DNA of 64,000 nt from a virus. Its lineage: Duplodnaviria; Heunggongvirae; Uroviricota; Caudoviricetes. The notes beneath the pieces are model-generated. The model was not told the origin of the DNA. It did no database searches and was given only the letters and a program-made list of their open reading frames with translations. Of the stretch, positions 5,145-31,508 are shown piece by piece; position 1 is the stretch's first letter, and the number at the start of each line of letters is the position of its first letter. The stretch covers positions 118,990-182,989 of the IMG/VR virus record IMGVR_UViG_3300033146_003879, one strand, 5' to 3'. Made by a program: the position numbers and the translations under genes.

Positions 5145-5230
5145 TGTACTCTCCATTATGTACGTTAACGTCAAAACACAGTTATTATAGATACTGTAGT
5201 GTTGGTAAAAAGGAGGTTCTGTGTAACCCA

Positions 5231-5938: not shown

Positions 5939-6137
5939 GTTCCATCAAACATATGAATTATAGAGGAAAAAAAAGAACGCCTAATAGATAGGCGCTCTTG
6001 ATACTTGTTCTTACGTTAATCTGCGTTTCTGCCTTCGCAAAGAGCTGCGTGTAAGGCTTCCTTGCACACCGCATCAGATTCAGGGACTCACTTGGGCAAG
6101 GTGTACTCGCCGCAGTCCTGGAGTGTCCCTCTCTGTG

Positions 6138-7126: not shown

Positions 7127-7149
7127 TGCATGAATGTATATTTTGTCAA

Positions 7150-7165
7150 CTTCTTATACCATAAT
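7150..7165 (-). promoter_or_regulatory. copy 1 of recurrent promoter-like motif (plus strand cttataccataat; minus strand reads TGGTATAAG, an extended -10)
   Basis: Member of the 14-copy motif family. Oriented so that minus-strand transcription would enter the 5940-7150 non-coding island. Confidence 0.4.
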
Positions 7166-7177
7166 AATAATGGAGTT

Positions 7178-8332: not shown

Positions 8333-8343
8333 TATGGCTCCTG

Positions 8344-9294
8344 TTAAGATCCCATGAGGGTATTATATGATGCCTTATAGTCATCGTATGCTTTAACGCG
8401 TTTGCGAGCTGAGTATATTCTAGGTATATCACTCGCCATATATCCGAGGCCAAGTCCTGCGACAGCTGCTCCGGGTGTCCAGAATCTTGTCTTTGCGTCG
8501 ACCGCGTCTTGCGCTTTCTTATCAATATAACGCTTTGCAAACGGGAGGGCAGCAAGCGTTGTTCCGGTAGCTCCGAGGCCGATAAGTTGGGCTAATCTGC
8601 CGGTTGACATCGCATGTTTTATCAGATCTAACTCATTCGATGAGTACTTCCTTCCATATCGAGAAGCATTGCGAACGTTGCTTCGCATTGCAGCCATACT
8701 TCCTGTTGCGGCATTACCTCGTGTTATATAGTTGCGGGCAGAATCATTCAGCTTGTAGCCAAGTGCCCCTGTTGCTACTGCTGCGAGCAGTGCTCTTGGA
8801 ATACGTGTCATTGCTGTATGTTTTGCCCTATCTGTCGCGTCCTTCTTATAATCATATATCTTCTTGCCACCATAAGCTACAGTACCTGCCCCGAGGGCAG
8901 CAGCCGCTAGTTGTCCTACACTCATAGATTGTTTAGGCATACTAGGGATTGCAGGAGCTGCTGGTGATTGCCCGTTAACATTCCACGGCTGGAATTGAGG
9001 CTGTGTGGTTTGTACACTTTGCTGCTGCCACAAATCAGTGTACCCTGGAGTTGTACCTACTTTACCTATGTTTGAATAGTCGTTTATTCCGGTGTTGTTT
9101 GCGTCGGTCTGCCCTTTAGGTGCCATACCCATGTTATTACTTTCTACAGCCAGTGGTGTGAGGTCTGCTTGCTGCTGGGAAGGTTGAGCTTCGCTCTTCA
9201 TGGTCAGTGATGCTTCCGGCGTGCTAAGATTCATGTTGTTGTCACTAGAACTCTTGTTAAGGTTCTTGACAGCATACTTGTATAGTGCTCCCAT
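8344..9294 (-). CDS. hypothetical Q/N/G/A-rich protein (virion or ejection protein?)
   Basis: 316-aa ORF in the structural block with low-complexity composition. Confidence 0.45.
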   Translation of the reverse strand: MGALYKYAVKNLNKSSSDNNMNLSTPEASLTMKSEAQPSQQQADLTPLAVESNNMGMAPKGQTDANNTGINDYSNIGKVGTTPGYTDLWQQQSVQTTQPQFQPWNVNGQSPAAPAIPSMPKQSMSVGQLAAAALGAGTVAYGGKKIYDYKKDATDRAKHTAMTRIPRALLAAVATGALGYKLNDSARNYITRGNAATGSMAAMRSNVRNASRYGRKYSSNELDLIKHAMSTGRLAQLIGLGATGTTLAALPFAKRYIDKKAQDAVDAKTRFWTPGAAVAGLGLGYMASDIPRIYSARKRVKAYDDYKASYNTLMGS

Positions 9295-9309
9295 TACGAA
9301 ACCTCTTTG

Positions 9310-9894
9310 TTATTTCTTCCCACGTCGGCGGTAGTTGTGCTCTGATTCTACAAGGGTGTTCACCATCTCTGGTCGCAATGACATGGATCCAGAATCAATG
9401 GCCGTCTGCAAGATAGGTAGTATTGCAGAAGGGGCTGCGCTTGTTGCTTGCGGAGCAAGTGCTAGGACTTCACCTACAAGGTCACGAGCACGTTTACTTC
9501 CGATTGCCTGGATCTCAGGTGATTTTGACAGAGATCGCACAATAGCGTCAGCTGTACTTAGTGGTTGATATTTTGCTGTAGTGAAATCGGAGAGTGTTGT
9601 CCCCAAGCCTTTTCCTGTTGCTTTTGCGGCTTCCTCAGGAGTATTAAATAACATATTGTACATCATCTCTTTTGCACGAGTGCTTCTATACAAGTTGCCG
9701 TAGTCACTCATGAGTCTTGATTGACCTGAAGTCTCCCATACAGGCGCTGCTTGTGTAATGTACTTCTGTTTTATAACATCACCGATGTCGTCAACGATAT
9801 CATCGAGAGCGAGAGCTCCTGCGAGAGCGCCTCCACCAAGGCCGAGTGTCAGTAACGCAGGTCCCATTTTCGCTTGTTTATCCATCATAATCAT
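9310..9894 (-). CDS. hypothetical protein
   Basis: 194-aa ORF, tightly packed within the minus-strand operon. Confidence 0.45.
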   Translation of the reverse strand: MIMMDKQAKMGPALLTLGLGGGALAGALALDDIVDDIGDVIKQKYITQAAPVWETSGQSRLMSDYGNLYRSTRAKEMMYNMLFNTPEEAAKATGKGLGTTLSDFTTAKYQPLSTADAIVRSLSKSPEIQAIGSKRARDLVGEVLALAPQATSAAPSAILPILQTAIDSGSMSLRPEMVNTLVESEHNYRRRGKK

Positions 9895-9928
9895 TACCTC
9901 AAAGTAAACTCAACTTCTGCCATTGTAA

Positions 9929-11794
9929 TTATAGTAACGTGACTGCACACTCGTCTTTAATGATATTCTTCGGGAAAATTGACTCTGTTATAGGTAGTAT
10001 ATATTCTGTAGTATATAGTGCCCAGAGTGGCATAATATCATCTATGAAAGACAAGTCACTCAGAACGTGAATACCAGCTGTGGGGATACGTATTATTACC
10101 TTCAGGTGGGAGTTTTTGATGAGATCTTCCCAGATATAAGTATTGTATTCCTTTATTGTTACTCTATCTGGGAGAAGCTTATACTTCTCAGGAGATGTCG
10201 TTGTGAATACATCGTAGTTAGAATCTATGTCTCGTGTGAAGAAATCAAATGTTATTTGTTTCTGATCGGCACAGGGCGGCGGTGCTGTTGTGTATACCGA
10301 ATCGAGTGGAAAAAAAGAATCGGAGAAATCGTCCCTGACAAAGTAATCGCCGGGAGAAAATGTTGCAGTGTTACCGTCGAAATCAAGGTATGTTATTGCG
10401 GTGGCTGAGAGGGGTAGATGGAACACGTGGTACTCTTCACGGTGAAGCTGGTAGTCTGTTTGTGTTGGTAGTGTAGTAACGTCTCCTTTGAATATAAGGT
10501 TGCGGTAGCGCTCCCAACGCGTGCCGTCAGGTGCTACATAAAGAATGTCGCCCTTTACGTATGTCTGAGTATCTCCTCCCCGTTCTATCGGGTAGGATAA
10601 CACTATTGTGTCTGGTGTTACACGTAGGTAGTCTCCTGCTGCGTGAGGCGTCGCATCGAGGTCAAGGTCGCTAGGCACACTTGCTGTTCCAACATTATTG
10701 CGGAGCATTGCGTACTTGTAGTGCAGTGGTACTTCACCGGTTACATTTAATGTCGGTGTATACACACTAGCGGATACTGTTGTTGAAACCGGGGAATAGG
10801 GGTTTATTCGTACAAGGTGCTCACTGAATGTTGCTGGAGGAACACCTTCCTCAATAGTAACAACGGAGTGGAATGGGGTGTATACAGGAAGAGTTGCTCC
10901 GAGTAGTAGTATTCCATTATTAAACGGTATTGTGTTATCGAGTATGTATGTTTCTCTATCTGTCCTCACCTCTGTGTGGGTAGGACCTGGTGTTATTGAT
11001 ACAATAGTTTCTCCTTCATAAAGTGTTATAGGGAGTCCTATTATCGTATTTATAGATGCTTCCAGTGCGACCTTTGTTGTTCCGTGATAGTAGGTAAGCA
11101 TAAGCCCTACGATCTTTCTACGGTATTCTATTTCTGGCTCAATATCATTTATATCTCTGTAATATACCAGAGTTCCGTAGTCTCTGTAGAGAGGCCCTTC
11201 TTTAAACTCAATTCCCTGAAATAGGAATGATCCTGTGAGAACAGAGTAGGTCTTACCTGAGGGGCATACAATGTCACTGTGGGCCGCTCCCTTAATGGAC
11301 TCAATAGGGTCAACATCAAACCGCATGTAGTCTGTGAAACATGCGTAGTTTATGTCCTTTATCAGGAGAACCTCAGGAGCAAAATATCTATCTGTTACTT
11401 TTGAGACGTATTTTGTATCTTCGTAAAAAAGGTCGAACGATCCGAGGAAAGTAGAGAAACCACCAACCGGTTCATAGTGTTTCATAAGTACATTTCGCTC
11501 AATAAGGTATTCTCTGTCAACAGGAAGGAGGGTATCTTCGTCGTTGATGTTAACGAGTCTTCGTACTGACACGAACCGTACTGCAGCCGGACTTGTTATG
11601 TCCGCCAATTGAGGGTTAATACTGGCTTGCTCTGCGATTATCCCTTCAAGGATGTCATTCATAAGAAGGTTTCCCGCTTCAACAAAAGCAGCCTCCTTAT
11701 CGAAGGCGTACTTTATTACAGACCAGTAGAATGGCGTATTAACGGGTACGAGACTCATGTCTTGTATAATCATGTTACACTCCTGCTGGTACAA
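9929..11794 (-). CDS. hypothetical structural protein (621 aa)
   Basis: Long ORF in the structural block. Overlaps the next gene by about 20 nt, typical of operon packing. Confidence 0.5.
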   Translation of the reverse strand: MYQQECNMIIQDMSLVPVNTPFYWSVIKYAFDKEAAFVEAGNLLMNDILEGIIAEQASINPQLADITSPAAVRFVSVRRLVNINDEDTLLPVDREYLIERNVLMKHYEPVGGFSTFLGSFDLFYEDTKYVSKVTDRYFAPEVLLIKDINYACFTDYMRFDVDPIESIKGAAHSDIVCPSGKTYSVLTGSFLFQGIEFKEGPLYRDYGTLVYYRDINDIEPEIEYRRKIVGLMLTYYHGTTKVALEASINTIIGLPITLYEGETIVSITPGPTHTEVRTDRETYILDNTIPFNNGILLLGATLPVYTPFHSVVTIEEGVPPATFSEHLVRINPYSPVSTTVSASVYTPTLNVTGEVPLHYKYAMLRNNVGTASVPSDLDLDATPHAAGDYLRVTPDTIVLSYPIERGGDTQTYVKGDILYVAPDGTRWERYRNLIFKGDVTTLPTQTDYQLHREEYHVFHLPLSATAITYLDFDGNTATFSPGDYFVRDDFSDSFFPLDSVYTTAPPPCADQKQITFDFFTRDIDSNYDVFTTTSPEKYKLLPDRVTIKEYNTYIWEDLIKNSHLKVIIRIPTAGIHVLSDLSFIDDIMPLWALYTTEYILPITESIFPKNIIKDECAVTLL

Positions 11795-12284
11795 GCGTAT
11801 AGGTATATTCCAAGGTAAGTGCAGTTGCGTCGTCTATGTCGAGTGCCGATGAAAATGTTACTCGTGAAAATGCCGTGGTCGTGCCGCCGTGGTTCACGGA
11901 TACAGCTGCCATGTGTTGTGTTGTTGCTGGGAAGTACCCGGCGGGTATTCCTATCTCAAAAACAACTGAGGCGGGAACTGCAGGATCTGATGTGTATGCT
12001 ATTGTTGTAGATGAGGACACGGTAAGTGCTCCTTCCGATAACCCGGTTCCGTCAAGAGGGATGTCTGCGGTAGGAGGAGTTGTGAATGTTGTTGCTAGGG
12101 GTGCTTGTGAAGAGTCTTCGAGCGATAGTGTATCAGGTGCCAACAATGATGCAGGGTGTGCTGTGTAGGCAAGGAATGTTGCAAGGGCATTGACAGATCC
12201 AGTTGGATCAAGAGCGTTGAATTTGTCGACTATTTTGCCATTCTTCCTGACAAGTATTCTGCAGCGGCCTATTACTTTCATCAT
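11775..12284 (-). CDS. hypothetical protein (169 aa)
   Basis: ORF packed between two large structural genes. Confidence 0.4.
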   Translation of the reverse strand: MMKVIGRCRILVRKNGKIVDKFNALDPTGSVNALATFLAYTAHPASLLAPDTLSLEDSSQAPLATTFTTPPTADIPLDGTGLSEGALTVSSSTTIAYTSDPAVPASVVFEIGIPAGYFPATTQHMAAVSVNHGGTTTAFSRVTFSSALDIDDATALTLEYTYTLVPAGV

Positions 12285-12286
12285 AA

Positions 12287-15200
12287 TTATGACCCCTTCT
12301 TGACTGTTGAATATATCTTAACATTACGCATGCGCTGTGTTATTACTACTTTTCCTGGGCGGACGGTGGTGCGTTCTTGGGAGGCGAACTCATCAGAGTT
12401 TTGTGCTGTTAACAGCCCGCTATTTACTGTGCACGCAAACTTATTTTCCGTGTCAGCGGAGTACATTATTGCGTCCTGTATTGTTGAGTAAGGAACTAGG
12501 TCAGCATCTGTATCGTGAAAATAGAGAGGTAGGTATCCTATCGATACCGTGATTGGCACTGATAGCCCTGGAATAGATCCAGCATCTGACCATTGTGTGT
12601 GGTCTGCTGCTGTGTCGCCTACTTTTATTGCAGCTCGTGTTATACCTGAGTAAGGTGCTGTAAAGTCATCTGACAAAACAGTAGGGTCGGTACCCAACAC
12701 TAAGCCGTGATCGTGTAGCACATCTACTAGATCATCGACTAGGTCTATTTCTAAGCTTATTCCTAATGATAGGTCAGCAAATGCATTTATTGGGGAGATC
12801 TCTATCTCGTGATCTAGGTTTAGTGGATCAGTTGCTGTGCTAGGGGTGTTGAGTTTTATGTCTACGGCGATCTGTTCGAACGTGAGTTCCCGCAAAACAC
12901 TATCCGACACAGCCATGGCTATTGTGTGTAGAGTTGCTTTCCCAGGGACAGGCGGTGTATACATGTCAGGGTTACTAACAAGCACATTGTTGTCTTCAAA
13001 CACAATGTCAGTTGCTGTTCTTGTGATTATGAGAGGTGATGACACATCAGGGTAGTAGGAGAGATCACTGAGTGTATCGTTCATGGTCATGGTTTCAAGG
13101 GTTGTTTCTCGGGTACCATCAACACTGGATATGGTAGGGTCAGCAAGCTGTAGTACGTGGAACTCTCCGCTACTATCCTGTACGGAGGCGTCGTACTGTT
13201 GTCTTATGAATGTTGCGCTGTAGTCTTTCGCCGCTTCTGCCAGAGGAGGGTAGGCTACTATATCTTTGTTCCTTCCGAGAGAATCATCTCTATCAGCAAC
13301 GTACTTGGTAAGTCCTAGGTCTAATACAGTCCTCTCGGTACCTTTATATAAGTTGGTTATGTCGACACGGGTCTCCCCTGCTGCGTATACACCCGGGGTG
13401 CTCCTTATTAAGGTTACTTTTTTTATGTAGTTTGCAGCATCTACGTTGAAATACTTACGGGAAACACCGGGGGATACCTCTGATACTGCGTATACAGGAA
13501 GTGTAATCATTGCGAATGGAAATACCTTTGTTTTGTTTGCAGTAGAAGTTGCCCCTGCGAGCTTTATTTTCGATAACAGCCCTAAACTTTGCGCAAAGGA
13601 ACCTGAACCTAGATCTGAATCTGGACTATCTATTTCACGATAATAAGTAGACATTCTATATTTTTCTGAAGTGGGGTTGGTGTCGGTATTAGGCACTGTG
13701 TTTAACTGTATTGGGTTAAATACAAAAGTGTCGGATGCGGAGGTGGGGTCAGTTGTAGCATCAGTCTTTGTGGCAATTATTGATGGGTTAAACAAAGCTA
13801 TGTGAGCTATGTCGTATTGGGGTGCGGATGTATAGGTTGCTGCCCTTGATGATTCTATTGCTGGGTAGAACTTCTCTGTTGTTGTTGTTGCTGTTATGTA
13901 ATCTCCGTAAGTCGTGCTTGTTAAGGACTCATATGAAATCCCGTACACAAGAGCTAGTATGTACTCAGCGGAGAACAGTACAGATCTGTTTTTCGCACAA
14001 TTACCTCTAGCGCTAGAACTGAGCTTCAGGTCAGTATAATAGTCAACATCTACTGTGAAGTTGTCCACCATCGCATCCGGTAATGATCTGTTTAATGTCC
14101 TCTTTAAGTAAGTTTGTACCAGAGATGTGCTGTAGGTTTTTCTTAAAAGTGTTCTGAATCTTGTGAATGTATCGATTGTTAGTGTGTCGTGCGCTGGAGG
14201 TGGGCTGTAGTCAGAAAGGCTCTCCAAGACGTGCTGTACGTTGATGTATGTGTCTATGTTTGTGGCGGCAGATGTGAATACAGTTCTCCGTAACAGTGAT
14301 GCCTCATTATATCTGCCAAATGCTCGCTGATCGTGGCCGTTGGTCCCATCCGATCCCGCTACAGCGGTAGTGTAAATAGAATTAACTGTAGCGTCAACCA
14401 CCAGGTCTCCTGCTTGTCCGCCGAGGCGTGCTCCGGATGATTTGTCGTTTATTGCTATTGTTGTAGCTTGCCCCATTGATAGATTGCTTAGGAGATCCGA
14501 TAAAACGACGTGCATTGACGCCTGAGGCTCGTGGGTTATAGATATTGTGTCTGATATATCTCCGAAATGTATGGAGTATCCTGTTGCGGTGTCTCCTGTG
14601 TGTTCTATTTTTGTTTCATTAACGCCGCCGTATATACGTTTTGTGGATCCCCCGAGAAATAAGTTCAGAGATGAGTATATTGACGAATACCCTGTAAACT
14701 GGTCTCCTACTAATCCATGTTCAGGGGACTCAAGTGCAGGTAGAGGTCTTCTCATAATCGCTTGTTGAGGGAGAGGGGTGAATGGAGGTAACCCTTCACC
14801 ACTATTGGTTGTTGTTATAGCTCCGTTCGTCCCTATTATTGTTCCACCAGATCTAAAGTTCCCTACATTAACGCCGGGATCTCTCACATTACCTATGTAT
14901 GTGCTGCGTTTTGTTGCTCCTAGTATGTCTGTCACAACATACGCTTTTGGTTCTGCCCCGTGGGCATTGGGAGTTATTATGTTTATGAAACCTGTTGGTA
15001 GTATTGCCCCGACATATACAGGTGTTGTTGGGCTAGGCGTCCCTAGTAACAAAGGGATGAGAGGCAGTGTGTATGTTGTTGGTGATATTCTTTTCCATCT
15101 ATCAACGTGTATATTGTTTAAGTCGCTCGCCAAATCCGTTACCTCAATAGAGAACCCAACAGCAGATACTGTCTCAGGGTTTATCAACAACTCGGTACGC

Positions 15201-17101
15201 TTAACTGAATCAGGGTACACAGAAGATCTTCTGTTTATCAGCTCATAAAGAGCGGTAAACATCTGATCAATATACACAAGACTATCTTTTCCTGGTATTG
15301 TTGTGGTAGCCTCGTCTTGTGGTACTACTGGCCCTAACATTGTTGGAAATAGGTCTTTGTATGGCGCCGATGGGGTACCTCCCCACTCCTCTATGGCGTC
15401 GTAGGTTACGTTTGATAAGCGGGTTGCACCACCCGAAAAGAAACTTCCTCCAGACCCCGTCGACATAACGATGCTCGTCTCCCCTGTATGGAGAAAGTAG
15501 TCGAGATAATCATCGAGGTTTATTACTGTTCCATCAAGGAATGTTATCTTTTTCTCAGTAACAGTAAACATAGGTAAGAATGTGTCCTTCATGTATGCTG
15601 TACCGTCGCCAGGGTCAGGTGCACCTGTGTTGTGGTACAGGTAAGGATTGTTCTTATGGGAAGGTTTGTAGATGTCCCAAACTGGTACTTTCAGGCTTGG
15701 GTCAAACGTAGGATCTAGTTCTGTTGTTCCAGGCGCCATATTTGCTATAGCGTGTCCTAGTGATGCTGGTATGAATGCAAATTGAGCACTGGATGATGAT
15801 CCGTTTAAGTATTCGAAGTTTGTGTTTCCGGTTGAGGTTACGGTAGGGGTGTCGAACATTGATTTTTGTACCCCTTCTCTAGCAACAACAAATCCATAAG
15901 TTCCTGTATTTATGAAGTTAGCGTCGTATTTGGGGTGACCGTTTATCTCAGTGCTTGTGAGTTCGCCTGACACATCCCCTCGAGAAAACAAGAAGGGGTG
16001 GTGTCTTCCGTACGTAGGAACATCACCGTCATCAAGAGGTAGTTGATCATCAAATGAAACAGGTCTACCCTCAAACACAGGAGGAAACGCCGATGCTCCA
16101 GGGATCTCTATTCGGACACTACGTGGTTTTATTGTGGCTATGTAAGGTTTTTCTTCTCGGTTCTTCATGAATGTCATGTTGAGAGGGGTGGTCAACAAGG
16201 TGGATGGTGGTACTACCTCAGGGAATATCTTAACGTGAAGCGGGAATAAACCGTCATTAAACGTGCGTGCTGACCCAGCTGTAACAGACCCTAGTGCAGA
16301 TAACAAGTCACCTACAGTCATACTTGCAATGTCACACACAATGCGAATTGTAGTATACCTCTTTTTATTGTCAATAAGAACAGGATCCTCAACAAACGTA
16401 CCGTGCTTGTCTGCCTCAGTATTGTGCTCAACGATAATCGAGATGTTGTGATGTACTGCGGTCGTAAATATATCAGGGTTAGCACCCCCCTCATCAACGT
16501 ACAACATAAGAACTGTTTCTGCGTCGAAAGGAGATGGTTCGTCAGGTGATAGAGGTATCGCATGGTAGTATTCACCGTAACCTCCGAGCCCGTAGTTAAG
16601 AATCAGGGTGTAAGCGTCAGCTGTGTCAATAGATCCTGAAGAGTCCCAGTTACTTGCTGCCGCAAATCGAACCGGAACATATTGTAAGAGACGGCTGCCA
16701 GGAACACTTGTTCCGATAACACCAGAAAGGTCTCCCGGTTTCCATACTCGGATATTCACATCGCGGTCTTTCTTGTAGTAAGGGCTTCCGTAGGTCGCTT
16801 CCGGTGGGGGAGGAACAGCCGCAGGATGTCCCACAGCAGTTGCGCTAGGTTCACTTTGAGCGCTCATATACAGTTGGATCTTATCGAGGAACAACCTATG
16901 CTCAAGGCTTGACACCTCACTTTGGTTAATCCCATGCATTAGGCTAACCATCCGAGAATAAGCAGAACTACCGTAGAGCTCCGATTGACGAACGGGGTCA
17001 CAGTCCTTGTAAAAAATACCGCTGTTCTTAATGTTGTTCTTTTTGTAATCGCGAGCCATGAGTCTCCTCCTTGTTGTCACATCGAAATTATAGTAGAACA
17101 A
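12287..17101 (-). CDS. giant structural protein (1604 aa)
   Basis: Uninterrupted 4.8-kb ORF. First gene of the minus-strand structural operon, downstream of an AT-rich divergent control region. Confidence 0.6.
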   Translation of the reverse strand: MFYYNFDVTTRRRLMARDYKKNNIKNSGIFYKDCDPVRQSELYGSSAYSRMVSLMHGINQSEVSSLEHRLFLDKIQLYMSAQSEPSATAVGHPAAVPPPPEATYGSPYYKKDRDVNIRVWKPGDLSGVIGTSVPGSRLLQYVPVRFAAASNWDSSGSIDTADAYTLILNYGLGGYGEYYHAIPLSPDEPSPFDAETVLMLYVDEGGANPDIFTTAVHHNISIIVEHNTEADKHGTFVEDPVLIDNKKRYTTIRIVCDIASMTVGDLLSALGSVTAGSARTFNDGLFPLHVKIFPEVVPPSTLLTTPLNMTFMKNREEKPYIATIKPRSVRIEIPGASAFPPVFEGRPVSFDDQLPLDDGDVPTYGRHHPFLFSRGDVSGELTSTEINGHPKYDANFINTGTYGFVVAREGVQKSMFDTPTVTSTGNTNFEYLNGSSSSAQFAFIPASLGHAIANMAPGTTELDPTFDPSLKVPVWDIYKPSHKNNPYLYHNTGAPDPGDGTAYMKDTFLPMFTVTEKKITFLDGTVINLDDYLDYFLHTGETSIVMSTGSGGSFFSGGATRLSNVTYDAIEEWGGTPSAPYKDLFPTMLGPVVPQDEATTTIPGKDSLVYIDQMFTALYELINRRSSVYPDSVKRTELLINPETVSAVGFSIEVTDLASDLNNIHVDRWKRISPTTYTLPLIPLLLGTPSPTTPVYVGAILPTGFINIITPNAHGAEPKAYVVTDILGATKRSTYIGNVRDPGVNVGNFRSGGTIIGTNGAITTTNSGEGLPPFTPLPQQAIMRRPLPALESPEHGLVGDQFTGYSSIYSSLNLFLGGSTKRIYGGVNETKIEHTGDTATGYSIHFGDISDTISITHEPQASMHVVLSDLLSNLSMGQATTIAINDKSSGARLGGQAGDLVVDATVNSIYTTAVAGSDGTNGHDQRAFGRYNEASLLRRTVFTSAATNIDTYINVQHVLESLSDYSPPPAHDTLTIDTFTRFRTLLRKTYSTSLVQTYLKRTLNRSLPDAMVDNFTVDVDYYTDLKLSSSARGNCAKNRSVLFSAEYILALVYGISYESLTSTTYGDYITATTTTEKFYPAIESSRAATYTSAPQYDIAHIALFNPSIIATKTDATTDPTSASDTFVFNPIQLNTVPNTDTNPTSEKYRMSTYYREIDSPDSDLGSGSFAQSLGLLSKIKLAGATSTANKTKVFPFAMITLPVYAVSEVSPGVSRKYFNVDAANYIKKVTLIRSTPGVYAAGETRVDITNLYKGTERTVLDLGLTKYVADRDDSLGRNKDIVAYPPLAEAAKDYSATFIRQQYDASVQDSSGEFHVLQLADPTISSVDGTRETTLETMTMNDTLSDLSYYPDVSSPLIITRTATDIVFEDNNVLVSNPDMYTPPVPGKATLHTIAMAVSDSVLRELTFEQIAVDIKLNTPSTATDPLNLDHEIEISPINAFADLSLGISLEIDLVDDLVDVLHDHGLVLGTDPTVLSDDFTAPYSGITRAAIKVGDTAADHTQWSDAGSIPGLSVPITVSIGYLPLYFHDTDADLVPYSTIQDAIMYSADTENKFACTVNSGLLTAQNSDEFASQERTTVRPGKVVITQRMRNVKIYSTVKKGS

Positions 17102-17294
17102 AACAACAACGCAAATTTTTTAAGCAAAACACAAGAAAAACATAAGGTAGAGAAAATGTCAATAATCCTATGTGCGCGGGTGGCGCGGTATTAATTCTTA
17201 CGCGCGTTCGCGCCGGCGTAACTATTCTCTATATATTTTTTTCTTTCTTTAAAAAAGTTTTTTTCTGAGAGGAAACTTTTAAAAACGTGATTTT

Positions 17295-17570
17295 AGTCCC
17301 CAAATCAACGTAACTACCTGATAATACTACATGCACTTGGGGACTACTCGGGGACTTACTCTGATATTCGGGGACTTATTCCTCCTTTGCAAAGTAGCAT
17401 TAGTTGTATACTTTATTTAGTATCACAAGTGATACGTTAGGTTTACTGTAGTATACAATCCAAATAATTAAACGTCTTGTGTTCGTGTTTTTGTGTATTT
17501 CTGTGCAATGCTAGTCCCCAGATTTGCCGAGTAACTCCCCGGATCTTGGAATAACTCCCCAAATTTACCC
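17295..17570. promoter_or_regulatory. divergent control region with about 7 GGGGACT / AGTCCCC repeats
   Basis: agtcccca at 17295 and 17513, ggggact x3 at 17337-17385, actcccc at 17544 and 17564. Lies between the starts of 12287..17101 (-) and 17721..20115 (+). Confidence 0.45.
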
Positions 17571-17720
17571 TTCTGTTTTTCGCCACTTTATCCTCTTGTT
17601 TATTTTTGTGTGCGGCATTTTAATTAGACGCATATTTAATCAACAAATTATTTTTAATCAACCAGTACTTCCCCTTGTTATATACCCTATAATTAGAGTG
17701 ACGTTATTTTGGAGGCATAA

Positions 17721-20115
17721 AATGCATAATGTAAAACCGTATCAAGTTAGAAGACAAGCGGATGGTGAGCTCCACCCTGTAGCTATAACGGAGAGGCTAC
17801 TCGCTGTTCGTGACAAACAGTACTCAAGCCCTGTATTATTGCTTCGAGAACAACCCTACCTGCTTGATGGAACACCTACTGTTGCTGTGACACGTGTGTT
17901 AGCAGTGAGTTCACCACTAACAGAGGTTGCTCCTACGGCCGTTGTTCCTATAGAGTCCTTTGTTGTTAGTTACACAGAAGGCATTATATACCTGAACGAG
18001 TCTGAGGTCCCTACCGGAAGTGATGTAAGTGCTGCTTTATATATAGTAGAGTATAGTGGGCTAGGTACACTCGTCAGCACAAGAGATATTCTCAGCCGAG
18101 ACGCTGATGCGTCAAACGCGAGTGACACAAATAGTGCTCTCCAGCGCTTTAACGTAACAGATTCTTACAAACTGGACCCCTCATCATATACGGCGTCTGC
18201 ACAAACAACAGCAGACTCAGTCAATGATGTCTTCTCCTTCGTCCTCTCCGGGGTATATATAACTGTTGCGCGCAATTCTACGGTCTCGTTTATGGAGATG
18301 GATAGATCCACAGCAACACTGAACGCAGTAGCAATAACATCAGACGCGATACCTAATCTAGCAGCCTCAAACCCTGCAGATATATGCATCATATCAGAGT
18401 CTGCTACTGCAATACACGACGGGCTTGGCGGCTTACACTTATTTACCTTGTCAGGAACCTCTTCCGGGACAGCGCGCCGCCTCAAAGTAACATCATTTAA
18501 ACTAGGCTTTACTCCGATAAAACTTGCGGTATTATCACCAGGGAACGACTCTATTATTGTGACATATGTCATGGGTAACGGTACTGGTGCTTATTCCACA
18601 GGGTATTTGCGCTTAACATCCGGACTTATGTTGTTTGATCAAGTAAACATAGACATAAGTAGTCACATAGATACCGGGTTTATTGATATACTCAGTGTGT
18701 CCTCAATACAAGGACCAAACACAACATTTAGTATTTTACAGAGCACCGGAGGAACAACAGTAAGCGTGACGTCGCTGTACTTCAATAGTTATATTTACGA
18801 CGCTCCTGCAGGAGAAGTTATAAGAACAGGAACCCTACCATTTTCAGGGAACATGTACTCCTTCGCCGCCGGCTACGGACCCGACGGCTCTGTTGTAGTA
18901 GCAACGTTTGCCTCATTTACTATGGGACCAAATCTCTATACTACAGCAATACACCCAGATGGAGAGTGCACTACCCTAACCTTCCCGCTGATGCCGAACG
19001 AACAGATTGTGAGCACCACCCGATCACACGGACTCTACATAGGTGTTACTCGCTACCTCGACGGCTCGGATGTGCACTTAAGAACAGCGTTATTCGACTT
19101 TGCAAATTATGAGATAAGCCCCCCTTTAGACATAAATGCATCCGTCACAATCGGTCCGGTTGCACACAGAGAGAACCTTTCTGTATTTACCTATGAATAC
19201 GGAGGCTTTGCCCAAATTATTTACTACGACAACCGCACAGCGAGTAACACGAAGTACGTCCTTGACTATGCGCGGTTCGACACAAAAAGAGACGACTGCG
19301 TACATCCTGACGGACTGCTCCAATGGGAAGGCGACGTCATTAGTGACGAGACTTACATAGACGATACAACACCAGGAGTCCAACTTACTCTGCTAACAAC
19401 ATGTAAAGACACAGAGATTGAGGCAAATTCAGCAGGAACAATCGAGGCTACCGTAACAGGAAAACAAGATGTAACAGGGGACGTCGCGAGCTTCAGAGTT
19501 ACTGCAACTATTCATAATGATGGAATGGCAACAACTATTGTAGGGACCCCAACAACAACAGTACTCGCGAGCACGGCTGGTGCTACAGGCTGGGTAGCGC
19601 GCGCATACAATGCAGGAAACTATCTTATTATCTTTGTACATGCAGACGGCTCTACAAACAACGTACACTGGTCAGCAGAAGGGTTTGTTGTTAAAACAGA
19701 ACTACCTGCAGTTTACACACCAGGAAGCCTTGCTGTATGGGAAGGAGAGACGACAACAGATGAAACTTACGTCAACGATACGACACCAGGAACAAAGTTC
19801 ACATTAGTGCCGGCATCAACAGTAGATACACTAGCGAGTGGTGAGATTGCCAACGTATCAGCTGTAGTTACTGCCGCATCTGTTTCTGGTGAAGCTGCAA
19901 GCTTTAGAATAGAAGGGACTGTGCAGTATGACGGATCCACAACAATTCTTATAGGAACACCTACCGTGTCTGTTCTCGCAGCGTCTGCCGCCGCAGTTAC
20001 ATGGAGAGCACGTGTTTACTTCGATAGCAATCAGATCGTTATTTATGGACACGGGGACGGTAGTGGCGGCGACACTATTACTTGGAACGCCAAAGGTATT
20101 CTTATTAAGTTCTAA
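17721..20115 (+). CDS. tail-fibre / receptor-binding-like protein with internal ~130-aa domain duplication
   Basis: Start at ATG 17721 is preceded by ggagg. Two C-terminal repeats (TYIDDTTPG...WSAEGFVVK and TYVNDTTPG...WNAKGILIKF). Ser/Thr/Gly-rich composition typical of fibres. Confidence 0.5.
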
Positions 20116-20116
20116 T

Positions 20117-20154
20117 GAAAAAAAGAAAGCCCCCAACACGTAGTGTGTTAGGGG
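20117..20154 (-). terminator. rho-independent terminator for the minus-strand lipoprotein gene (hairpin cccccaacacg-tag-tgtgttagggg plus U-run on minus)
   Basis: GC hairpin at 20130-20154, followed on the minus strand by UUUCUUUUUUUC (20117-20128). Confidence 0.55.
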
Positions 20155-20163: not shown

Positions 20164-20985
20164 TTAAGGTAGATGGTAATACACACCATCTACGTCTATG
20201 TCTATAAGGGCTTCAATTCGCCCTATAACCACTCCGGTCGCTACTGGACTATACGTAACAACCTCGTATGAGTCAGAATAATTGTAATCCAGAGATGTTA
20301 CGGTAAATGATAGATTATGCCTATCCCGCAGCATATCAACTGTCCTATCACCTAGTCGGGCTGGCATGCTCACGTTCGATTCTTTATTAAGTGTAAAGTA
20401 TAATGTAAGACTACTCATATCAGACACAACTGCGAAATACATAGTAAGTATGTAGCCGGAATAACGACCTACAAGCTCACACTCCATCACAGACCCGAGT
20501 AGTAGGTCACCGTCTTTCCTTAGAACCTCTTCACAAACAACATCTGTTATAGGCACGTCCGTGTCATCCGACTCCTCAGAATCATCAGCGACAGCGTCAT
20601 CATCAGCCGACTCCTCAGAATCAACAGTCTCATCGACACCACCAGCCGACTCATCAGAATCAACAGTCTCATCGACACCATCAGCCGACTCATCAGAATC
20701 AACAGTCTCATCGACACCATCAGCCGACTCATCAGAATCAACAGTCTCATCGACACCACCAGTAGCCTCCTCTGAGTCTACATCAGCAACTTCATCAGCA
20801 ACACAGATCGAGTCAATACACTCGAGCCTTGAATCACAGGTGTTATTATCGTAGCACTTTTCATGCCATCCTCCAACATCACCTGATCCTTTCGCCGCGT
20901 CTCCACCGCAGCTAACAACAAACATGTTCATCAAAACCACCAACAAAACCACCAACCACCCCTTTCTTCTTGTAACCTTAGTCAT
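20164..20985 (-). CDS. secreted lipoprotein with Cys-rich N-domain and acidic 13-aa tandem repeats (GVDETVDSDESAD x ~5)
   Basis: Start MTKVTRRKGWLVVLLVVLMNMFVVSCGG has GGAGG 7 nt upstream. Signal peptide plus lipobox VVSC. Repeats are visible in both protein and DNA. Confidence 0.65.
   Translation of the reverse strand: MTKVTRRKGWLVVLLVVLMNMFVVSCGGDAAKGSGDVGGWHEKCYDNNTCDSRLECIDSICVADEVADVDSEEATGGVDETVDSDESADGVDETVDSDESADGVDETVDSDESAGGVDETVDSEESADDDAVADDSEESDDTDVPITDVVCEEVLRKDGDLLLGSVMECELVGRYSGYILTMYFAVVSDMSSLTLYFTLNKESNVSMPARLGDRTVDMLRDRHNLSFTVTSLDYNYSDSYEVVTYSPVATGVVIGRIEALIDIDVDGVYYHLP
20569..20763. repeat. 5 x 39-bp tandem repeat inside the lipoprotein gene
   Basis: Unit ccgactcMtcagaatcaacagtctcatcgacaccaYcag repeated head-to-tail. 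Generates spurious shadow ORFs on both strands. Confidence 0.8.
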
Positions 20986-21225
20986 AACAACCTCCTGTTT
21001 TTTAACGTGGTTGTCTCCACATTGATATATACTACACAATAAAACCAGAAGTAATGGCTCAGACTACGCTTGCCTAGGCCTGTACGTAACTTCACGAGGT
21101 CTTTCTCCTCGCACACAGACATCTCAACACCTCCTCCTTTGTTGACATACCATACATATTCTTATACCTCAAAAACGCAGTTTTTATATCAAAAAAAGAA
21201 ACCCTGCAACTTAAGTAACAGGGTA

Positions 21226-21582
21226 TCATAACCCTCCATCTTGATTAATATTACGATGCCTAAGATCAATCCGAAAGCTCTTTTCAAATAACTTCGGGGG
21301 GAATACCAGCAGCGTACCATCTGTCCTACGTACTATATAGTCCCCTATGTTTGCTCCCGCATATGACTTGGCCCCATCCTGCATAAGCTGAGGCTTATTT
21401 GAGATAGGGCAAAGAACTATAGACAAATTCTTAATGTTTGTCCGTTTTGAGAACGCGTCGGCTTCCTCTTGGGTTTCTCCCCACCAGCGCTCAGCCATAA
21501 TTTCCTCTGCATGGGTTCCGGGACCCTTCTTGAACACATATCTATTCACAACACACCTCCTAGCGGTGGTATATTGTCGCAC
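21226..21582 (-). CDS. small protein, paralogue family A member 1
   Basis: Shares Y-x-[KR]...AAQW[LI]G[EN][TS]..AF and C-terminal GDY[VI]..G..[VI]F...F[EN][KR] motifs with three neighbouring ORFs. Confidence 0.5.
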   Translation of the reverse strand: MRQYTTARRCVVNRYVFKKGPGTHAEEIMAERWWGETQEEADAFSKRTNIKNLSIVLCPISNKPQLMQDGAKSYAGANIGDYIVRRTDGTLLVFPPKLFEKSFRIDLRHRNINQDGGL

Positions 21583-21902
21583 CTAAGATACACACCATAC
21601 CTACTATTAAAGAACTTCTCGGTAAACACCCTTATAACCCCCTTACCGTCGACAGCTATAAAGTTACCGTACTCGGCACTCCTAACTATTTTATCTTCAC
21701 CCGGTGTTACCACCACCTCCAGCTGTTGTGTGAAAGGATTTTCATCAAGAAATAGCCTACCTTGGAGTCCGTGTTCTTCCATGAACGCCTCCAGATCTTC
21801 CTTCGTATTACCTAACCACTGTGCTGCATAGAGTTCTTTGTCACACACCCTCCTATTATTGCTAAAGCCTGGAGGAGACCAACGTATTTTATACCTATCC
21901 AT
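21546..21902 (-). CDS. small protein, paralogue family A member 2
   Basis: LYAAQWLGNTKEDLEAF ... GNFIAVDGKGVIRVFTEKFFNSRY. Confidence 0.5.
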   Translation of the reverse strand: MDRYKIRWSPPGFSNNRRVCDKELYAAQWLGNTKEDLEAFMEEHGLQGRLFLDENPFTQQLEVVVTPGEDKIVRSAEYGNFIAVDGKGVIRVFTEKFFNSRYGVYLRCDNIPPLGGVL

Positions 21903-21944: not shown

Positions 21945-22493
21945 TCACCAATCAACATCATCGTCGTCCCAGCCATCATCATCGTCGTCCCAATCATCAT
22001 CATCGTCGTCCTCATCGTCCTCATCATCCTCATCCTCATCATACTCGCCAAGGAACTCCGCAGCTTCTTCATCATCACATGCGGCATAATCATACTTATT
22101 AGGATCTGATGCTGGGATATAGTCATCTCTCATGTTATCAACCCATATCTTTGGGAGCGATGGTTCGTAGGCACGCTCAAAGGGAATGCCTGGAATAATT
22201 AATATCTTTCCTGATTCACGCCTTACAACATAATCCCCTTGGCTAGCGTGTCTGAATGTCGCACCAAAACCCTCTTGCGTGAGCACCTTATTACCAGACC
22301 GGACACGAATAACCGTAAGCCCCTCAATTCCATGCTCCTCACCAAACACCTTAGCATAACACACGGTAGACCCGATCCAACACGCTGCGCGTATCCTTTC
22401 TGGTAAAGCCTTTCCTTCAGAGTCTGTTTTGTATCCGCTTTTCTTTAGTTTATACTCAATCACAACACCCTCCGCTACCCCATAGGTCCACAC
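21945..22493 (-). CDS. family A member 3 with a 60-aa poly-acidic, Trp-punctuated C-terminal tail
   Basis: Core matches family A (AACWIGS ... GDYVVRRESGKILIIPGIPFERAYE). Tail is EYDEDEDDEDDEDDDDDDWDDDDDGWDDDDVDW. Confidence 0.5.
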   Translation of the reverse strand: MWTYGVAEGVVIEYKLKKSGYKTDSEGKALPERIRAACWIGSTVCYAKVFGEEHGIEGLTVIRVRSGNKVLTQEGFGATFRHASQGDYVVRRESGKILIIPGIPFERAYEPSLPKIWVDNMRDDYIPASDPNKYDYAACDDEEAAEFLGEYDEDEDDEDDEDDDDDDWDDDDDGWDDDDVDW

Positions 22494-22912
22494 CCAACAG
22501 CTTTACCTGGAGTGCATAATTTCTCTCCTGGTACGAGGGCTTTTCTAGCTTCTTCCTCGCCCCCGAACGGAGTAAACCCGTGTATCAACAGGCGCATAAT
22601 TACCCCGTGGTTCTTTCTAATAGCAATCACACACATCACATTCTTATTGTGAGCGAGGATAGCTTGCTGAAGTGCTGACTCAACGTAATCTTCGCATGTT
22701 GTATTAGCAACACTCAGTAAGAGTGCGTCATGCACCCCTTGCAGTTCGCTTGTCCTCTGTTCCGTAGAAACGGCATCGACGGATATAACGAGCGCTACAA
22801 AGAACGCACTGCCAACCGCTGACCTGACAACAGCATCAGTCGTCTGTGCTGAGTGGGACTCGAGCACCAGAAACCCGATAATAAACAGAAATATCAGTAA
22901 TACAAAACTCAT
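22475..22912 (-). CDS. hypothetical protein with N-terminal signal/anchor
   Basis: Starts MSFVLLIFLFIIGFLVLES (hydrophobic). Confidence 0.4.
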   Translation of the reverse strand: MSFVLLIFLFIIGFLVLESHSAQTTDAVVRSAVGSAFFVALVISVDAVSTEQRTSELQGVHDALLLSVANTTCEDYVESALQQAILAHNKNVMCVIAIRKNHGVIMRLLIHGFTPFGGEEEARKALVPGEKLCTPGKAVGCGPMG

Positions 22913-22921: not shown

Positions 22922-23260
22922 CTAAATTAAACGCCCTTCTTGAGCAAGATTATTACCCACCAGCACAGGTTTTCTCACTTCTACATACTTCTTTTCGAAG
23001 ATATGCCTACTAAACACAGCTATACCGTTCTCCCAATCAAGAGCAACGTAATCACCCTGTTTTGCTACAGTAGATGCTATGAACGATCCTTTCAGTCTTA
23101 TGTGGTACACTTGTGAGTAATATGCTTTGTAGTATTTCAGCGCAGGTAACCCCTCTTTCTTTGCGAAAGCATCAGCATCAGCCTGGGACTCACCTAACCA
23201 CTGAGCCGCGTACAAAAAGCGCTCACCTATACCACGTCTCCGATACTTTTTCACAAACAA
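22922..23260 (-). CDS. small protein, paralogue family A member 4
   Basis: LYAAQWLGESQADADAF ... GDYVALDWENGIAVFSRHIFEKKY. Confidence 0.5.
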   Translation of the reverse strand: MFVKKYRRRGIGERFLYAAQWLGESQADADAFAKKEGLPALKYYKAYYSQVYHIRLKGSFIASTVAKQGDYVALDWENGIAVFSRHIFEKKYVEVRKPVLVGNNLAQEGRLI

Positions 23261-23353: not shown

Positions 23354-23665
23354 TCATTTCTTTCTCCTTATTACGTTCGTTGTGAATTCATATCTGTGAT
23401 CATAGACTCCTTTACACCCCCACACGGTTACTTTTGCCGGAGGGAACTTGAATCCACCGCACGAGTTATCAGGGAGTGCCTCTACAAAAGACGATACATT
23501 CACGGTAGGGTTATTCGGCTTAAGAGTAATCTCCCAAGACACATCGTCCCATCCGTACGGAATGACCTCTCCTAGCTTATCGTCAGAACTGTCGTTTCTA
23601 CCAGACATAATAGATGATAACAATAACGGGATAGCAAGGATCCCCATAATAACACTTACTTTCAT
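23354..23665 (-). CDS. small secreted protein (signal peptide)
   Basis: Starts MKVSVIMGILAIPLLLSSIMSG, followed by a hydrophilic domain containing CGG and GCKG. Confidence 0.45.
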   Translation of the reverse strand: MKVSVIMGILAIPLLLSSIMSGRNDSSDDKLGEVIPYGWDDVSWEITLKPNNPTVNVSSFVEALPDNSCGGFKFPPAKVTVWGCKGVYDHRYEFTTNVIRRKK

Positions 23666-24158: not shown

Positions 24159-24499
24159 TGGTGGAGGCGGCGGGAATCGAACCCGCGTCCTAAAAACCTT
24201 CAAGATAGATACTACATGTTTAGTCCGTCTTTACTAAAATCTTCGGCGCCAACGGACAGGCCCCTCGAAGTTTCCTACGCTAAAGTTTTCGTGGCATCTC
24301 CCACATAGAAAGGATCAACCCTTAGTCTCACAGTTGTGCGCCCCAATTGGTGTCGTGAGCACCCCTCCAATAGGACGGCAGCTTATGCTGCTATGAGTTC
24401 AGTTTTTGCGTCTCTGAACGTGCCGCTTTTTACGAGGCCCGCGGCGCCTCGACATGCATCTATTCTCTCCGCGAATCCAGTCGAAACCAGGTCGCCCCC
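24159..24499 (-). ncRNA. ssrA: tmRNA (ssrA-like), about 341 nt, phage-encoded
   Basis: Minus strand reads 5' GGGGGCGACCUGGUUUCGACUGGAUUCG ... GGACGCGGGUUCGAUUCCCGCCGCCUCCACCA 3'. The 7-bp acceptor stem (GGGGGCG / CGCCUCC) carries a G3.U pair. T-arm GCGGG-UUCGAUU-CCCGC with terminal CCA. Internal putative tag frame ends ...ACU GAA CUC AUA GCA GCA UAA (TELIAA*). Confidence 0.8.
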
Positions 24500-29992: not shown

Positions 29993-30367
29993 TTACTGAT
30001 TCTTAATGTATGTCTTGATGACTTCGAGCGGTGCGCCGCCAGAAGACGTAACGTAATAAGACGGGGACCATAATTTCTTGTGCCGTCTTAATTCCGGGTA
30101 TAAAGCTCTGAGCTTTTTGCTTGTTGGCCCCTTAACTGCCTGCACTATAGAGGAGATTGACTCTGTCGAAGGGTATTCAATAAGGAGGTGGACGTGATCT
30201 AAATCGCCGTTACATTCCTCAAGCGTGATCCCCTTCTTCTTGAACGCCTGTCTTGCATAATATGCGAAGTCTCCAAGTATTCTCGGAGAAAGCACCTTTC
30301 TCCTATACTTCGTTACCAATACGAGGTGTGCATGCAAGCTGCTTATGTTTGTTCTTGACTTCCTCAT
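29993..30367 (-). CDS. tnpA: IS200/IS605 Y1 (HUH) transposase TnpA
   Basis: LHAHLVLVTKYRRKVL ... DHVHLLIEYP (HuH) ... LWSPSYYVTS (catalytic Tyr). Confidence 0.85.
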   Translation of the reverse strand: MRKSRTNISSLHAHLVLVTKYRRKVLSPRILGDFAYYARQAFKKKGITLEECNGDLDHVHLLIEYPSTESISSIVQAVKGPTSKKLRALYPELRRHKKLWSPSYYVTSSGGAPLEVIKTYIKNQ

Positions 30368-30389
30368 AACCCTAAGTATACTCTTTTGT

Positions 30390-31508
30390 ATGAAAGTGTC
30401 AAGAGCATATAAATACCGCCTTTACCCTACGCGAGAACAAGAGATTAAGTTGTCTCAGTTCGTTGGAAACAATAGATATCTCTGGAACTTCGTTCTATCC
30501 GCTCTCGAAGGCAAGAAGTGGGACCGATTCGCTGTTTCCAAACAACTTCCTTCACTTAAGTCTGAAATACCATTCCTTAAAGAATCTCCGTCTCAAGCGT
30601 TTCAACAATTGTTAATTGATATGGATGCTGCATTTAAGAGCTTCTTTCGGAAGAAACACGGATATCCGAAGTTTAAGAAACGCGGTATGCACGACTCTTT
30701 TAGAATACCGGTTGTGAAGTCCCCTGAATCTATAAACAAGAATAGCTGCGTCTGGATACCAAAATTGGGTTTTGTGGAACTGCGTTTGTCGCGTGAGGTG
30801 AGAGGAGAAGCGAAGTCTATCACTGTGTCTCGGAGAGCGGGAAAATGGTTTGTCTCAATATTGACGAAAAGCGAGATGCAGGAAACAGGCGGAAAGACAG
30901 GAAATAGTGTAGGAATTGATCTCGGCGTTAAACACTTCGCGACAACGTCGGGCGGAAAGCATATACATGCTCCAGAGGAAAGAGTGCGCTATTTAGAGAA
31001 GAGAATAGAGCGCATGCAGAGGAAAGTCAGTAGAGCGAAGAAAGGATCAAGCAACAGAAGCAAGTTGCGTCTTAAATTAAGTAGACTCCACTTAACTCTC
31101 GCGAATGTGAAAGAAGACTTCTTGCACAAGGTGAGCACACAGTTAATCAAGAACCACGATTTACTTGTGCTCGAAGACCTTGGTGTAAAGGAGATGACAG
31201 AAGCAGGAGCGAGAAAAGCGAAGTTAAATAGAGCAATCTTGCGTCAAGGTTGGTATAAATTTAGGACTTTACTTGAGTATAAGAGTATGTGGTATGGCTG
31301 TGCCGTAGTGTTCGTCCCGCCTCAATTCACGAGTCAGCGCTGTAGCGAATGCGGGAATATAAACGCAGCAAACAGAAAGACACAATCGTCATTTAAATGC
31401 CTTTCGTGTGGCCATACTGAAAACGCTGATATAAACGCAGCTAAGAACATTTTCACCGTCGGGCAGACGGGTAGAGCCTTTGGAGACGCCGCGCTAGCGG
31501 GTCGATGA
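30390..31508 (+). CDS. tnpB: TnpB (OrfB, RuvC-like, RNA-guided nuclease family)
   Basis: N-terminus KVSRAYKYRLYPTREQ, GIDLGVKHFATTSGG (RuvC-I), C-terminal zinc finger CSECG...CLSCGH, DINAAKNI. Confidence 0.85.
   Translation: MKVSRAYKYRLYPTREQEIKLSQFVGNNRYLWNFVLSALEGKKWDRFAVSKQLPSLKSEIPFLKESPSQAFQQLLIDMDAAFKSFFRKKHGYPKFKKRGMHDSFRIPVVKSPESINKNSCVWIPKLGFVELRLSREVRGEAKSITVSRRAGKWFVSILTKSEMQETGGKTGNSVGIDLGVKHFATTSGGKHIHAPEERVRYLEKRIERMQRKVSRAKKGSSNRSKLRLKLSRLHLTLANVKEDFLHKVSTQLIKNHDLLVLEDLGVKEMTEAGARKAKLNRAILRQGWYKFRTLLEYKSMWYGCAVVFVPPQFTSQRCSECGNINAANRKTQSSFKCLSCGHTENADINAAKNIFTVGQTGRAFGDAALAGR

Follow-up and report, generated by a model that had tools for sequence, protein, structure and literature searches.

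An orphan phage gene for a predicted lipoprotein with an acidic tandem-repeat segment, in a putative transcription cassette of its own

Few kinds of phage protein act on the host surface, and lipoproteins are one of them, with roles in exclusion, receptor masking, lysis and host fitness. Two described systems come closest to the gene presented here. Ltp of the Streptococcus thermophilus phage TP-J34 is a superinfection-exclusion lipoprotein that consists of a lipid anchor, a spacer and an effector domain, and its acidic residues matter for binding the basic tape-measure end (PMC3952083). In T5, llp adjoins the receptor-binding gene pb5, and the Llp and Cor proteins carry an intramolecular disulfide (PMC9586334). 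We analyzed a stretch of 64,000 nucleotides (nt) from an uncultivated phage of the Caudoviricetes (positions 118,990 to 182,989 of the IMG/VR record IMGVR_UViG_3300033146_003879), called the window below and numbered from its first letter, and describe a minus-strand gene that codes for a predicted lipoprotein of 273 amino acids (aa). We consider it highly probable that the product is a lipid-anchored extracytoplasmic protein with a lipoprotein-plus-tether architecture, in which a signal peptide and lipobox are followed by a small Cys-rich module, an acidic segment with tandem repeats and a C-terminal domain. The phage itself is large, phylogenetically isolated and very unusual.

The likeness to Ltp is an analogy of layout only, as anchor, low-complexity spacer and effector follow each other in the same order. 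The spacer of Ltp is short and Ser-rich, whereas here it is formed by 84 aa of acidic tandem repeats placed after a four-Cys module; its effector is a helical repeat domain, whereas the corresponding domain of our protein is predicted, at low confidence, to be beta-rich; and Ltp belongs to the lysogeny module of a temperate phage, while this gene lies in a large phage beside structural-like genes. No similarity to Ltp was found in PHROGs, Pfam or the PDB sequences. With the FhuA-blocking Llp and Cor proteins (T5, T1, phi80 and N15) the product would share the character of a phage lipoprotein with disulfide-forming Cys residues, and, in a position that recalls T5 llp, the gene adjoins what may be a receptor-binding or fiber gene, a neighbor with a duplicated C-terminal domain and no annotatable function. 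Llp and Cor differ in being small, single-domain and free of repeats (PMC9586334), and no similarity to them was detected with PHROGs, Pfam or PADLOC, nor by tblastn over 50,697 GenBank phage records.

The gene is genuine, as its Shine-Dalgarno (SD) sequence (upstream sequence ...AACAGGAGGTTGTTATG), ATG start, in-frame codon usage and terminator indicate. An index similar to the codon adaptation index (CAI-like), trained on 14 long genes of the window, reaches 0.797 in frame and 0.66-0.73 in the other five frames, with reference genes at 0.74-0.81, and it is because its own frame tops the other five that we take the gene as real. Its GC content (0.46) and codon usage are the same as those of the phage. 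A mechanical list of open reading frames (ORFs) also gives a longer, TTG-initiated version of 291 aa; we favor the ATG because it is served by the SD sequence and results in a canonical signal peptide. A Ser-rich antisense ORF (20561-20854, plus strand) was rejected as a shadow of the repeat, codon usage favoring the minus-strand frame.

The predicted signal peptide (MTKVTRRKGWLVVLLVVLMNMFVVS, N-terminus MTKVTRRKGWLVVLLVVLMNMFVVSC) combines four basic residues with an uncharged hydrophobic core and runs into a V-V-S-C lipobox (in VVLMNMFVVSC) that fits the pattern [LVI][ASTVI][GAS]C. An earlier note on this DNA had proposed a signal peptide and lipobox, and both hold up under a PROSITE PS51257-style lipoprotein rule, which asks for K or R within the first 7 residues, a lipobox and a Cys at position 15-35: the charged n-region is provided by K3, R6 and R7, with K8 next, and the Cys is residue 26. 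The Kyte-Doolittle profile (19-residue window) has its maximum of 2.29 at aa 9-27, and since this is the sole hydrophobic segment of the protein there is no C-terminal anchor. The mature protein is predicted to begin with CGGDAAKGSGDVGG, a Gly-rich tether. By sequence, the protein has everything needed for Sec export, for Lgt/Lsp processing and for a lipid anchor, along with extracytoplasmic hallmarks.

The acidic segment contains many Ser and Thr residues, has no secondary structure in a low-confidence AlphaFold2 (AF2) model and is probably disordered. Within it, Tandem Repeats Finder (TRF) reports an array at 20564-20762 with a period of 39, 5.1 copies, 92% matches and a score of 314, far above chance. 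Where the earlier note had seen five perfect repeats of 39 base pairs (bp) and 13 aa, the acidic tandem array is real and the description as five perfect copies is overstated; we count four near-identical units with one degenerate unit on either side. Units 0 and 1 are identical in DNA, while units 2 and 3 each have a single non-synonymous nucleotide change (GAT>GGT, D>G in unit 2; GAT>GAG, D>E in unit 3), and the longest exact period-39 block is 116 nt. Because these unit-specific substitutions fix the order of the units, collapse or expansion by an assembler is unlikely; short-read assembly should have coped with such an array, and mis-assembly is an unlikely source of it. As two units are DNA-identical and two differ by one nucleotide, in-frame gain or loss of units is possible. 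Mycoplasmas are known for size-variable surface lipoproteins with tandem repeats, Vlp and Vsa, and the likeness lies in an extracellular part made of in-frame tandem repeats (12-13 aa or similar), whose copy number in Vlp and Vsa sets protein length and shielding properties. They are bacterial proteins with no sequence relationship to ours, and the standard code of the window, with TGA stops, means that the host is not a mycoplasma.

The Cys-rich module and the C-terminal domain that had been suggested to flank the repeats are both present, the latter with about 127 aa. The label EGF- or knottin-like does not apply to the module, because it has four rather than six Cys and because the protein has no EGF or knottin match in Pfam at E values up to 10. 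Its spacing is C-x5-C-x5-C-x4-C (CYDNNTCDSRLECIDSICV at aa 44-62), and the even count fits two disulfides in an oxidizing compartment. Together with the pair in the C-terminal domain, the six non-anchor Cys are split into groups of four and two, a grouping as would be expected for a disulfide-bonded extracytoplasmic protein. The module recalls NCBIfam NF047434 (LA_0364 family Cys-rich lipoprotein, Leptospira), where a lipobox is likewise followed by a Cys cluster of similar spacing: the model scores 18 bits (E 0.003) with the full protein, 21 bits (E 0.00035) with aa 1-76 and 15.8 bits (E 0.014) with the Cys module without the signal peptide, and does not match the signal peptide alone. The curated cutoff is 40 bits, and the model spans only 94 positions, without acidic repeats or a C-terminal domain; this is resemblance rather than membership, and a four-Cys match can come from spacing alone. 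For the C-terminal domain, single-sequence AF2 predictions made with the whole protein and with the domain alone show only strands, at low confidence (predicted local distance difference test, pLDDT, 46.7 and 47.5), and a Foldseek search of the low-confidence model against the PDB gave a best E value of 0.78.

The lipoprotein is, on all searches made, a complete orphan. It has no match in Pfam or PHROGs (E values up to 10), PADLOC, the PLSDB plasmids, IMG/VR or the PDB sequences, and neither a nucleotide nor a tblastn match among the GenBank phages; the JGI metagenome contigs gave no match, with the source contig itself also not returned. In an index of 5.8 billion proteins the lipoprotein matches only itself, encoded on a JGI contig of 182,989 bp. 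An exhaustive phmmer search of the C-terminal domain against 1.84 billion representatives found the domain itself and P0002, a protein of 1516 aa (E 9e-5) with at least 14 tandem Big_9/He_PIG/cadherin-like repeats. We rejected an immunoglobulin (Ig)-like reading of the domain: the P0002 score sums nine weak stretches, each crossing a repeat boundary, hhalign against the P0002 repeat profile aligns 20 columns with a probability of 1%, and membership in the bacterial Ig-like families (Big_9/He_PIG/cadherin-like) is also without a Pfam match.

The gene seems to lie in a self-contained transcription cassette, in the order terminator, promoter-like motif, 46-aa ORF, lipoprotein gene and strong terminator, and this autonomous cassette is newly described here. 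The upstream hairpin stands directly 3' of the stop codon of a paralog gene (21226-21582); a strict terminator-consensus scan did not pick it up, and it is probably a terminator that shields the cassette from the array of genes upstream. The motif has a core, GGTATAAGAAT, of extended -10-like form (TGnTATAAG type in consensus). With up to 1 mismatch this core has 10 matches in the window, all of them intergenic and on the minus (coding) strand, compared with an expectation of 1.25 (10 reached in 0/100 shuffles); the aligned sites give the extended consensus TGYAAAAAYT-N5-TTCTGTGGTATAAGAATATG, and we read the motif as a promoter-like element of the phage. Three of the sites (48027, 48389 and 52801) have an extra common upstream block, GGCTTCCAGATAGG, and two of these three fall in a 1.1-kb ORF-poor gap (47507-48605) that may hold small RNAs or small genes. 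The 46-aa ORF starts 36 nt downstream of the motif, with a strong SD sequence (AAGGAGGAGG) 7 nt before its ATG. It has no family match in NCBIfam or PADLOC profile searches, and as its CAI-like score of 0.731 falls in the non-coding range we treat it as a possible leader or small gene and no more. The downstream terminator starts 10 nt past the stop codon of the lipoprotein gene, between it and a convergent gene for a 797-aa protein, and folds with -17.9 kcal/mol (z -4.7), a stability that 0/200 shuffles attained.

Accessory genes with their own promoter and terminator between modules, and with an envelope lipoprotein as product, recall the morons, a concept said to go back to Juhala et al. 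2000; lambda bor is a moron, and its product Bor is a lipoprotein. The layout here, with a promoter-like motif and terminator of its own and apparent insulation, is of this type by sequence, while foreign composition was not found, GC content and codon usage being phage-like. The locus further differs from a moron in that its promoter motif is common to at least nine other phage sites, which argues that the cassette is part of the phage programme and not obviously foreign, and in that nothing here points to a temperate phage.

Table 1. Features of the lipoprotein gene, its cassette and the surrounding window
Feature	Position	Strand	Details
Lipoprotein coding sequence	20164..20985	minus	273 aa + stop; ATG at 20985
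Shine-Dalgarno AGGAGG of lipoprotein gene	20991..20996	minus	5 nt before ATG
Signal peptide aa 1-25 and lipidation-site Cys26	20908..20985	minus	predicted, PS51257-style rule
Four-Cys mini-module aa 40-62	20800..20868	minus	WHEKCYDNNTCDSRLECIDSICV; C44, C50, C56, C61
Acidic segment aa 63-146	20548..20799	minus	84 aa; 38 D/E, 0 K/R, net charge -38
Core tandem array, four 39-bp/13-aa units	20602..20757	minus	aa 77-128; GVDETVDS(D/E)ESA(D/G)
Degenerate flanking units	20758-20796 and 20563-20601	minus	23-30/39 nt identical
C-terminal domain aa 147-273	20167..20547	minus	~127 aa; predicted all-beta; two Cys (151, 169)
Hairpin (CCCUG...CAGGG) + U-run, probable terminator	21191..21224	minus	fold -14.7 kcal/mol, z -2.5, then UUUCUUUUUUU
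Promoter-like motif	21155..21192	minus	core at 21168-21158, A-rich block upstream
Promoter-like motif sites	7160, 21168, 43792, 46589, 48027, 48389, 49243, 50471, 52801, 54052	minus	11-mer scan
46-aa upstream ORF	20982..21122	minus	MSVCEEKDLVKLRTGLGKRSLSHYFWFYCVVYINVETTTLKNRRLL; TGA overlaps lipoprotein ATG (ATGA)
Intrinsic terminator	20120..20154	minus	10-bp GC-rich stem, 5-nt loop, CUUUCUUUUUUU
Convergent neighbor gene, orphan	17722..20115	plus	797 aa; true start ATG 17722 after GGAGG
Four tandem paralogs, ~110-180 aa	21226-21582, 21546-21902, 21945-22493, 22922-23260	minus	motif YAAQWLGxTxxDxxAF
Membrane protein	22475-22912	minus	N-terminal transmembrane segment MSFVLLIFLFIIGFLVL
Small secreted protein	23354-23665	minus	signal-peptide-like MKVSVIMGILAIPLLLSSIMSG
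Full-length transfer-messenger RNA (tmRNA)	24159-24499	minus	Rfam RF00023, 173.6 bits; ARAGORN tag peptide AKTELIAA
Second canonical lipoprotein, SPFH/Band_7	40705-41517	minus	MKKILFVIMLLFVSLASISC...; lipobox SISC
IS200/IS605-type pair	29993-30367, 30345-31508	minus, plus	Y1 transposase + TnpB-like OrfB, phrog_506 5e-108
Head-maturation-protease-like ORF	5231-5938		
Giant ORFs	4-4761, 12287-17101	plus, minus	1585 aa, 1604 aa

The cassette is located at a junction, with a leftward structural-like block (4785-17101) and the rightward 797-aa gene on one side and a leftward accessory array on the other. At the C-terminus of the 797-aa protein a domain of ~128 aa occurs twice in tandem (the copies being 40% identical, E 1e-28), which is compatible with a fiber- or adhesin-type protein. 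The accessory array comprises a four-member orphan paralog family, a transmembrane (TM) protein and a small secreted protein. The paralogs are 24-31% identical to the first member, and no other members of the family were found among the 5.8 billion proteins; the membrane protein and the secreted protein had no family matches. The occurrence of these two in the same array as the lipoprotein suggests a cluster of envelope-directed products. The paralog at 21945-22493 has a polyacidic tail (DEDEDDEDDEDDDDDDWDDDDDGWDDDDVDW, 21948-22042) that derives from 21-bp/3-bp tandem repeats; two acidic tracts encoded by repeats, this one and that of the lipoprotein, thus lie within 1.5 kb of each other.

The phage origin assumed in the earlier note is borne out by the window, which carries phage-type genes, a PHROG "lipoprotein" and a tmRNA. 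Its content includes a NAD-ligase, an RNA ligase, a dATP/dGTP pyrophosphohydrolase, GroES, DUF5662 and a RyR domain, as well as radical SAM, ParB/HNH and methyltransferase genes. The tmRNA is encoded within the phage-like array of genes at a distance of 3.2 kb upstream from the lipoprotein gene, and tmRNAs are known in huge phages (PMC10747093). The second lipoprotein matches Pfam SPFH/Band_7 (1.5e-17) and phrog_200 "lipoprotein" (1.7e-32), and its presence indicates that the phage does use the host lipoprotein pathway. The ORFs of 1604, 384, 621 and 797 aa have no match in Pfam, PHROGs, GenBank phages or IMG/VR, and the giant 1585-aa ORF has none in Pfam; as the neighbors are thus orphans too, no related genome turned up in which to compare the repeat number. 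The IS200/IS605 pair sits within the leftward gene array, and its closest genomic relatives are ~41% identical and taxonomically scattered, so that the transposase (at most 41% identity to scattered taxa) is uninformative on the host. SD motifs precede 26/39 ATG genes of the window versus a background of 19%, and genes end in any of the three stop codons, which points to a host with SD-dependent initiation and the standard code and argues against Bacteroidota-like or recoded hosts.

Two further regions of the window drew our attention. Between the divergent 1604-aa (minus) and 797-aa (plus) genes lies an intergenic region of 620 nt (17102-17721) with at least seven GGGGA(C/G)T motifs in both orientations and with palindromes. 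The cumulative GC skew peaks there, the skew being positive over 10-16 kb and strongly negative from 20 kb on, with minus-strand genes in both parts, and we regard it as a candidate regulatory or origin-like region. The other is a tandem repeat of 8 bp (ACAACAAA)/16 bp in ~9 copies (54779-54847), in an ORF-poor region of 1.25 kb (54595-55847).

A possible mode of action can be put together from the parts of the lipoprotein. After cleavage of the type carried out by signal peptidase (SPase) II, the protein would be anchored in the membrane by an N-acyl-diacylglyceryl Cys26, and the polyanionic repeats would form a disordered, self-repelling and extended tether with a contour length of ~30 nm, or ~4.7 nm per 13-aa unit. 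This tether would hold the C-terminal domain across the periplasm or the wall, off the membrane in which the protein is anchored, and in-frame gain or loss of units would tune its reach. In envelope lipoproteins a disordered N-terminal linker is a normal, functional component (bioRxiv 10.1101/2021.01.05.425367; PMC12826056). By binding to, or masking, a component of the envelope, the protein would then stop other phages from adsorbing or injecting, or alternatively it would save progeny from being lost on lysed cells. As an overall explanation we tentatively propose an envelope-modifying lipoprotein with an anchor, an acidic tether and a beta-rich domain, a reading that is quite possible and that we hold with some reserve. 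Exclusion or receptor masking is our preferred guess for the function, although a doubtful one; it is favored because of the analogies with Ltp and T5 llp, and the position of an autonomous cassette beside, and convergent with, the gene for the duplicated-domain 797-aa protein is an architectural hint that recalls llp and pb5.

Several points weigh against this proposal. The protein shows homology neither to exclusion proteins nor to any other sequence, so that its function is argued from analogy alone, and the known exclusion lipoproteins are much smaller and without repeats. The only candidate for a receptor-binding protein is the 797-aa neighbor, which has no annotatable function. Lipidation is the prediction of a PS51257-style sequence rule only, and the structure predictions are of low confidence (pLDDT about 47). 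Variation in repeat number was not observed, no second sequence of the gene having been found.

Among the alternatives, the one that survives best, and that we still regard as unlikely, keeps an envelope accessory ("moron") lipoprotein and places its activity in the polyanionic repeats instead of specific receptor masking. The repeats could chelate Ca2+/Mg2+, or as a negatively charged brush they could change the charge of the envelope, its adhesion, the behavior of biofilms or the resistance to cationic agents. A segment of 84 aa with 38 D/E, many Ser/Thr and no basic residue, within a mature protein of net charge -52, would suit such a role, as would the autonomous cassette, and the polyacidic tail of the paralog at 21945-22493 suggests that acidic tails recur in this region. 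On the other hand, the Cys module and the C-terminal domain are well formed, which suggests specific binding, and no TSP3, EF-hand or RTX calcium-binding motif was detected with Pfam.

We find it improbable that the lipoprotein is a virion-assembly or virion-associated factor tied to the 797-aa protein, for instance as a membrane-tethered chaperone or scaffold for fiber assembly, or as a decoy by which fibers are kept from binding before release. The two genes adjoin and converge at the edge of the structural-like block and have a common terminator region, but they are transcribed from opposite strands as separate units, no structural function could be annotated for either protein, and to our knowledge lipoproteins are rarely virion or assembly components in tailed phages. 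There is also little reason to expect that the protein escapes lipid modification, either because the signal sequence is an uncleaved signal-anchor (type II) or because it is an SPase I signal peptide that would yield a soluble secreted protein. The residues at -3/-2 of the lipobox are V-V and not the commonest L-A/S; against this, V-V-S-C is within the accepted lipobox classes, Cys26 lies inside the 15-35 range, the n-region has four K/R, no A-x-A SPase I site occurs downstream, and the phage codes for a second canonical lipoprotein (SISC, SPFH, phrog_200) at 40705-41517.

In the o-spanin Rz1 a flexible linker follows the lipidated Cys, and both spanin subunits together typically have ~250 aa (PMC6139136). 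A lysis function as an o-spanin (Rz1-like) or as a unimolecular spanin (u-spanin, T1 gp11) is very improbable and largely refuted by the anatomy, for although the predicted N-terminal lipoylation signal and the flexible linker are similar, an upstream ORF overlaps the start of the gene and a TM protein (22475-22912) is encoded 1.5 kb upstream, the protein lacks a C-terminal transmembrane domain (TMD) and hence is no u-spanin, its 273 aa alone exceed the typical combined length of both spanin subunits, Pro occurs only 4 times in the mature protein and forms no Pro-rich region, the 46-aa ORF has neither an N-terminal TMD nor a periplasmic coiled coil (its sole hydrophobic run has 13 aa, near the middle of the ORF), profile searches detected no endolysin or holin match within 6 kb and no i-spanin nearby, neither an i-spanin partner nor a lysis cassette is seen, and PHROGs gave no spanin match at E values up to 10.

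Returning to the envelope-modifying lipoprotein, its most far-reaching version, which we consider a long shot, is a "polyanionic ruler" class. The repeat-variable acidic tether would determine how far across the periplasm or wall a beta-rich binding domain of a new kind extends, or would work by electrostatic repulsion or cation sequestration, and would exclude competing phages in a tunable manner that evolves fast through slippage, as a contingency locus of the variable-number tandem repeat (VNTR) type.

On present evidence this is one more orphan accessory gene, and it is not in conflict with current understanding. A sequence-unrelated lipoprotein with a repeat-built acidic tether would nevertheless widen the known design space of phage lipoproteins, and if the repeat number varies in populations, this would be contingency-type variation in a phage envelope factor. 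The gene, which is small, self-contained and easily synthesized, offers a clean test object for the effect of a huge uncultivated phage on the envelope of its host.

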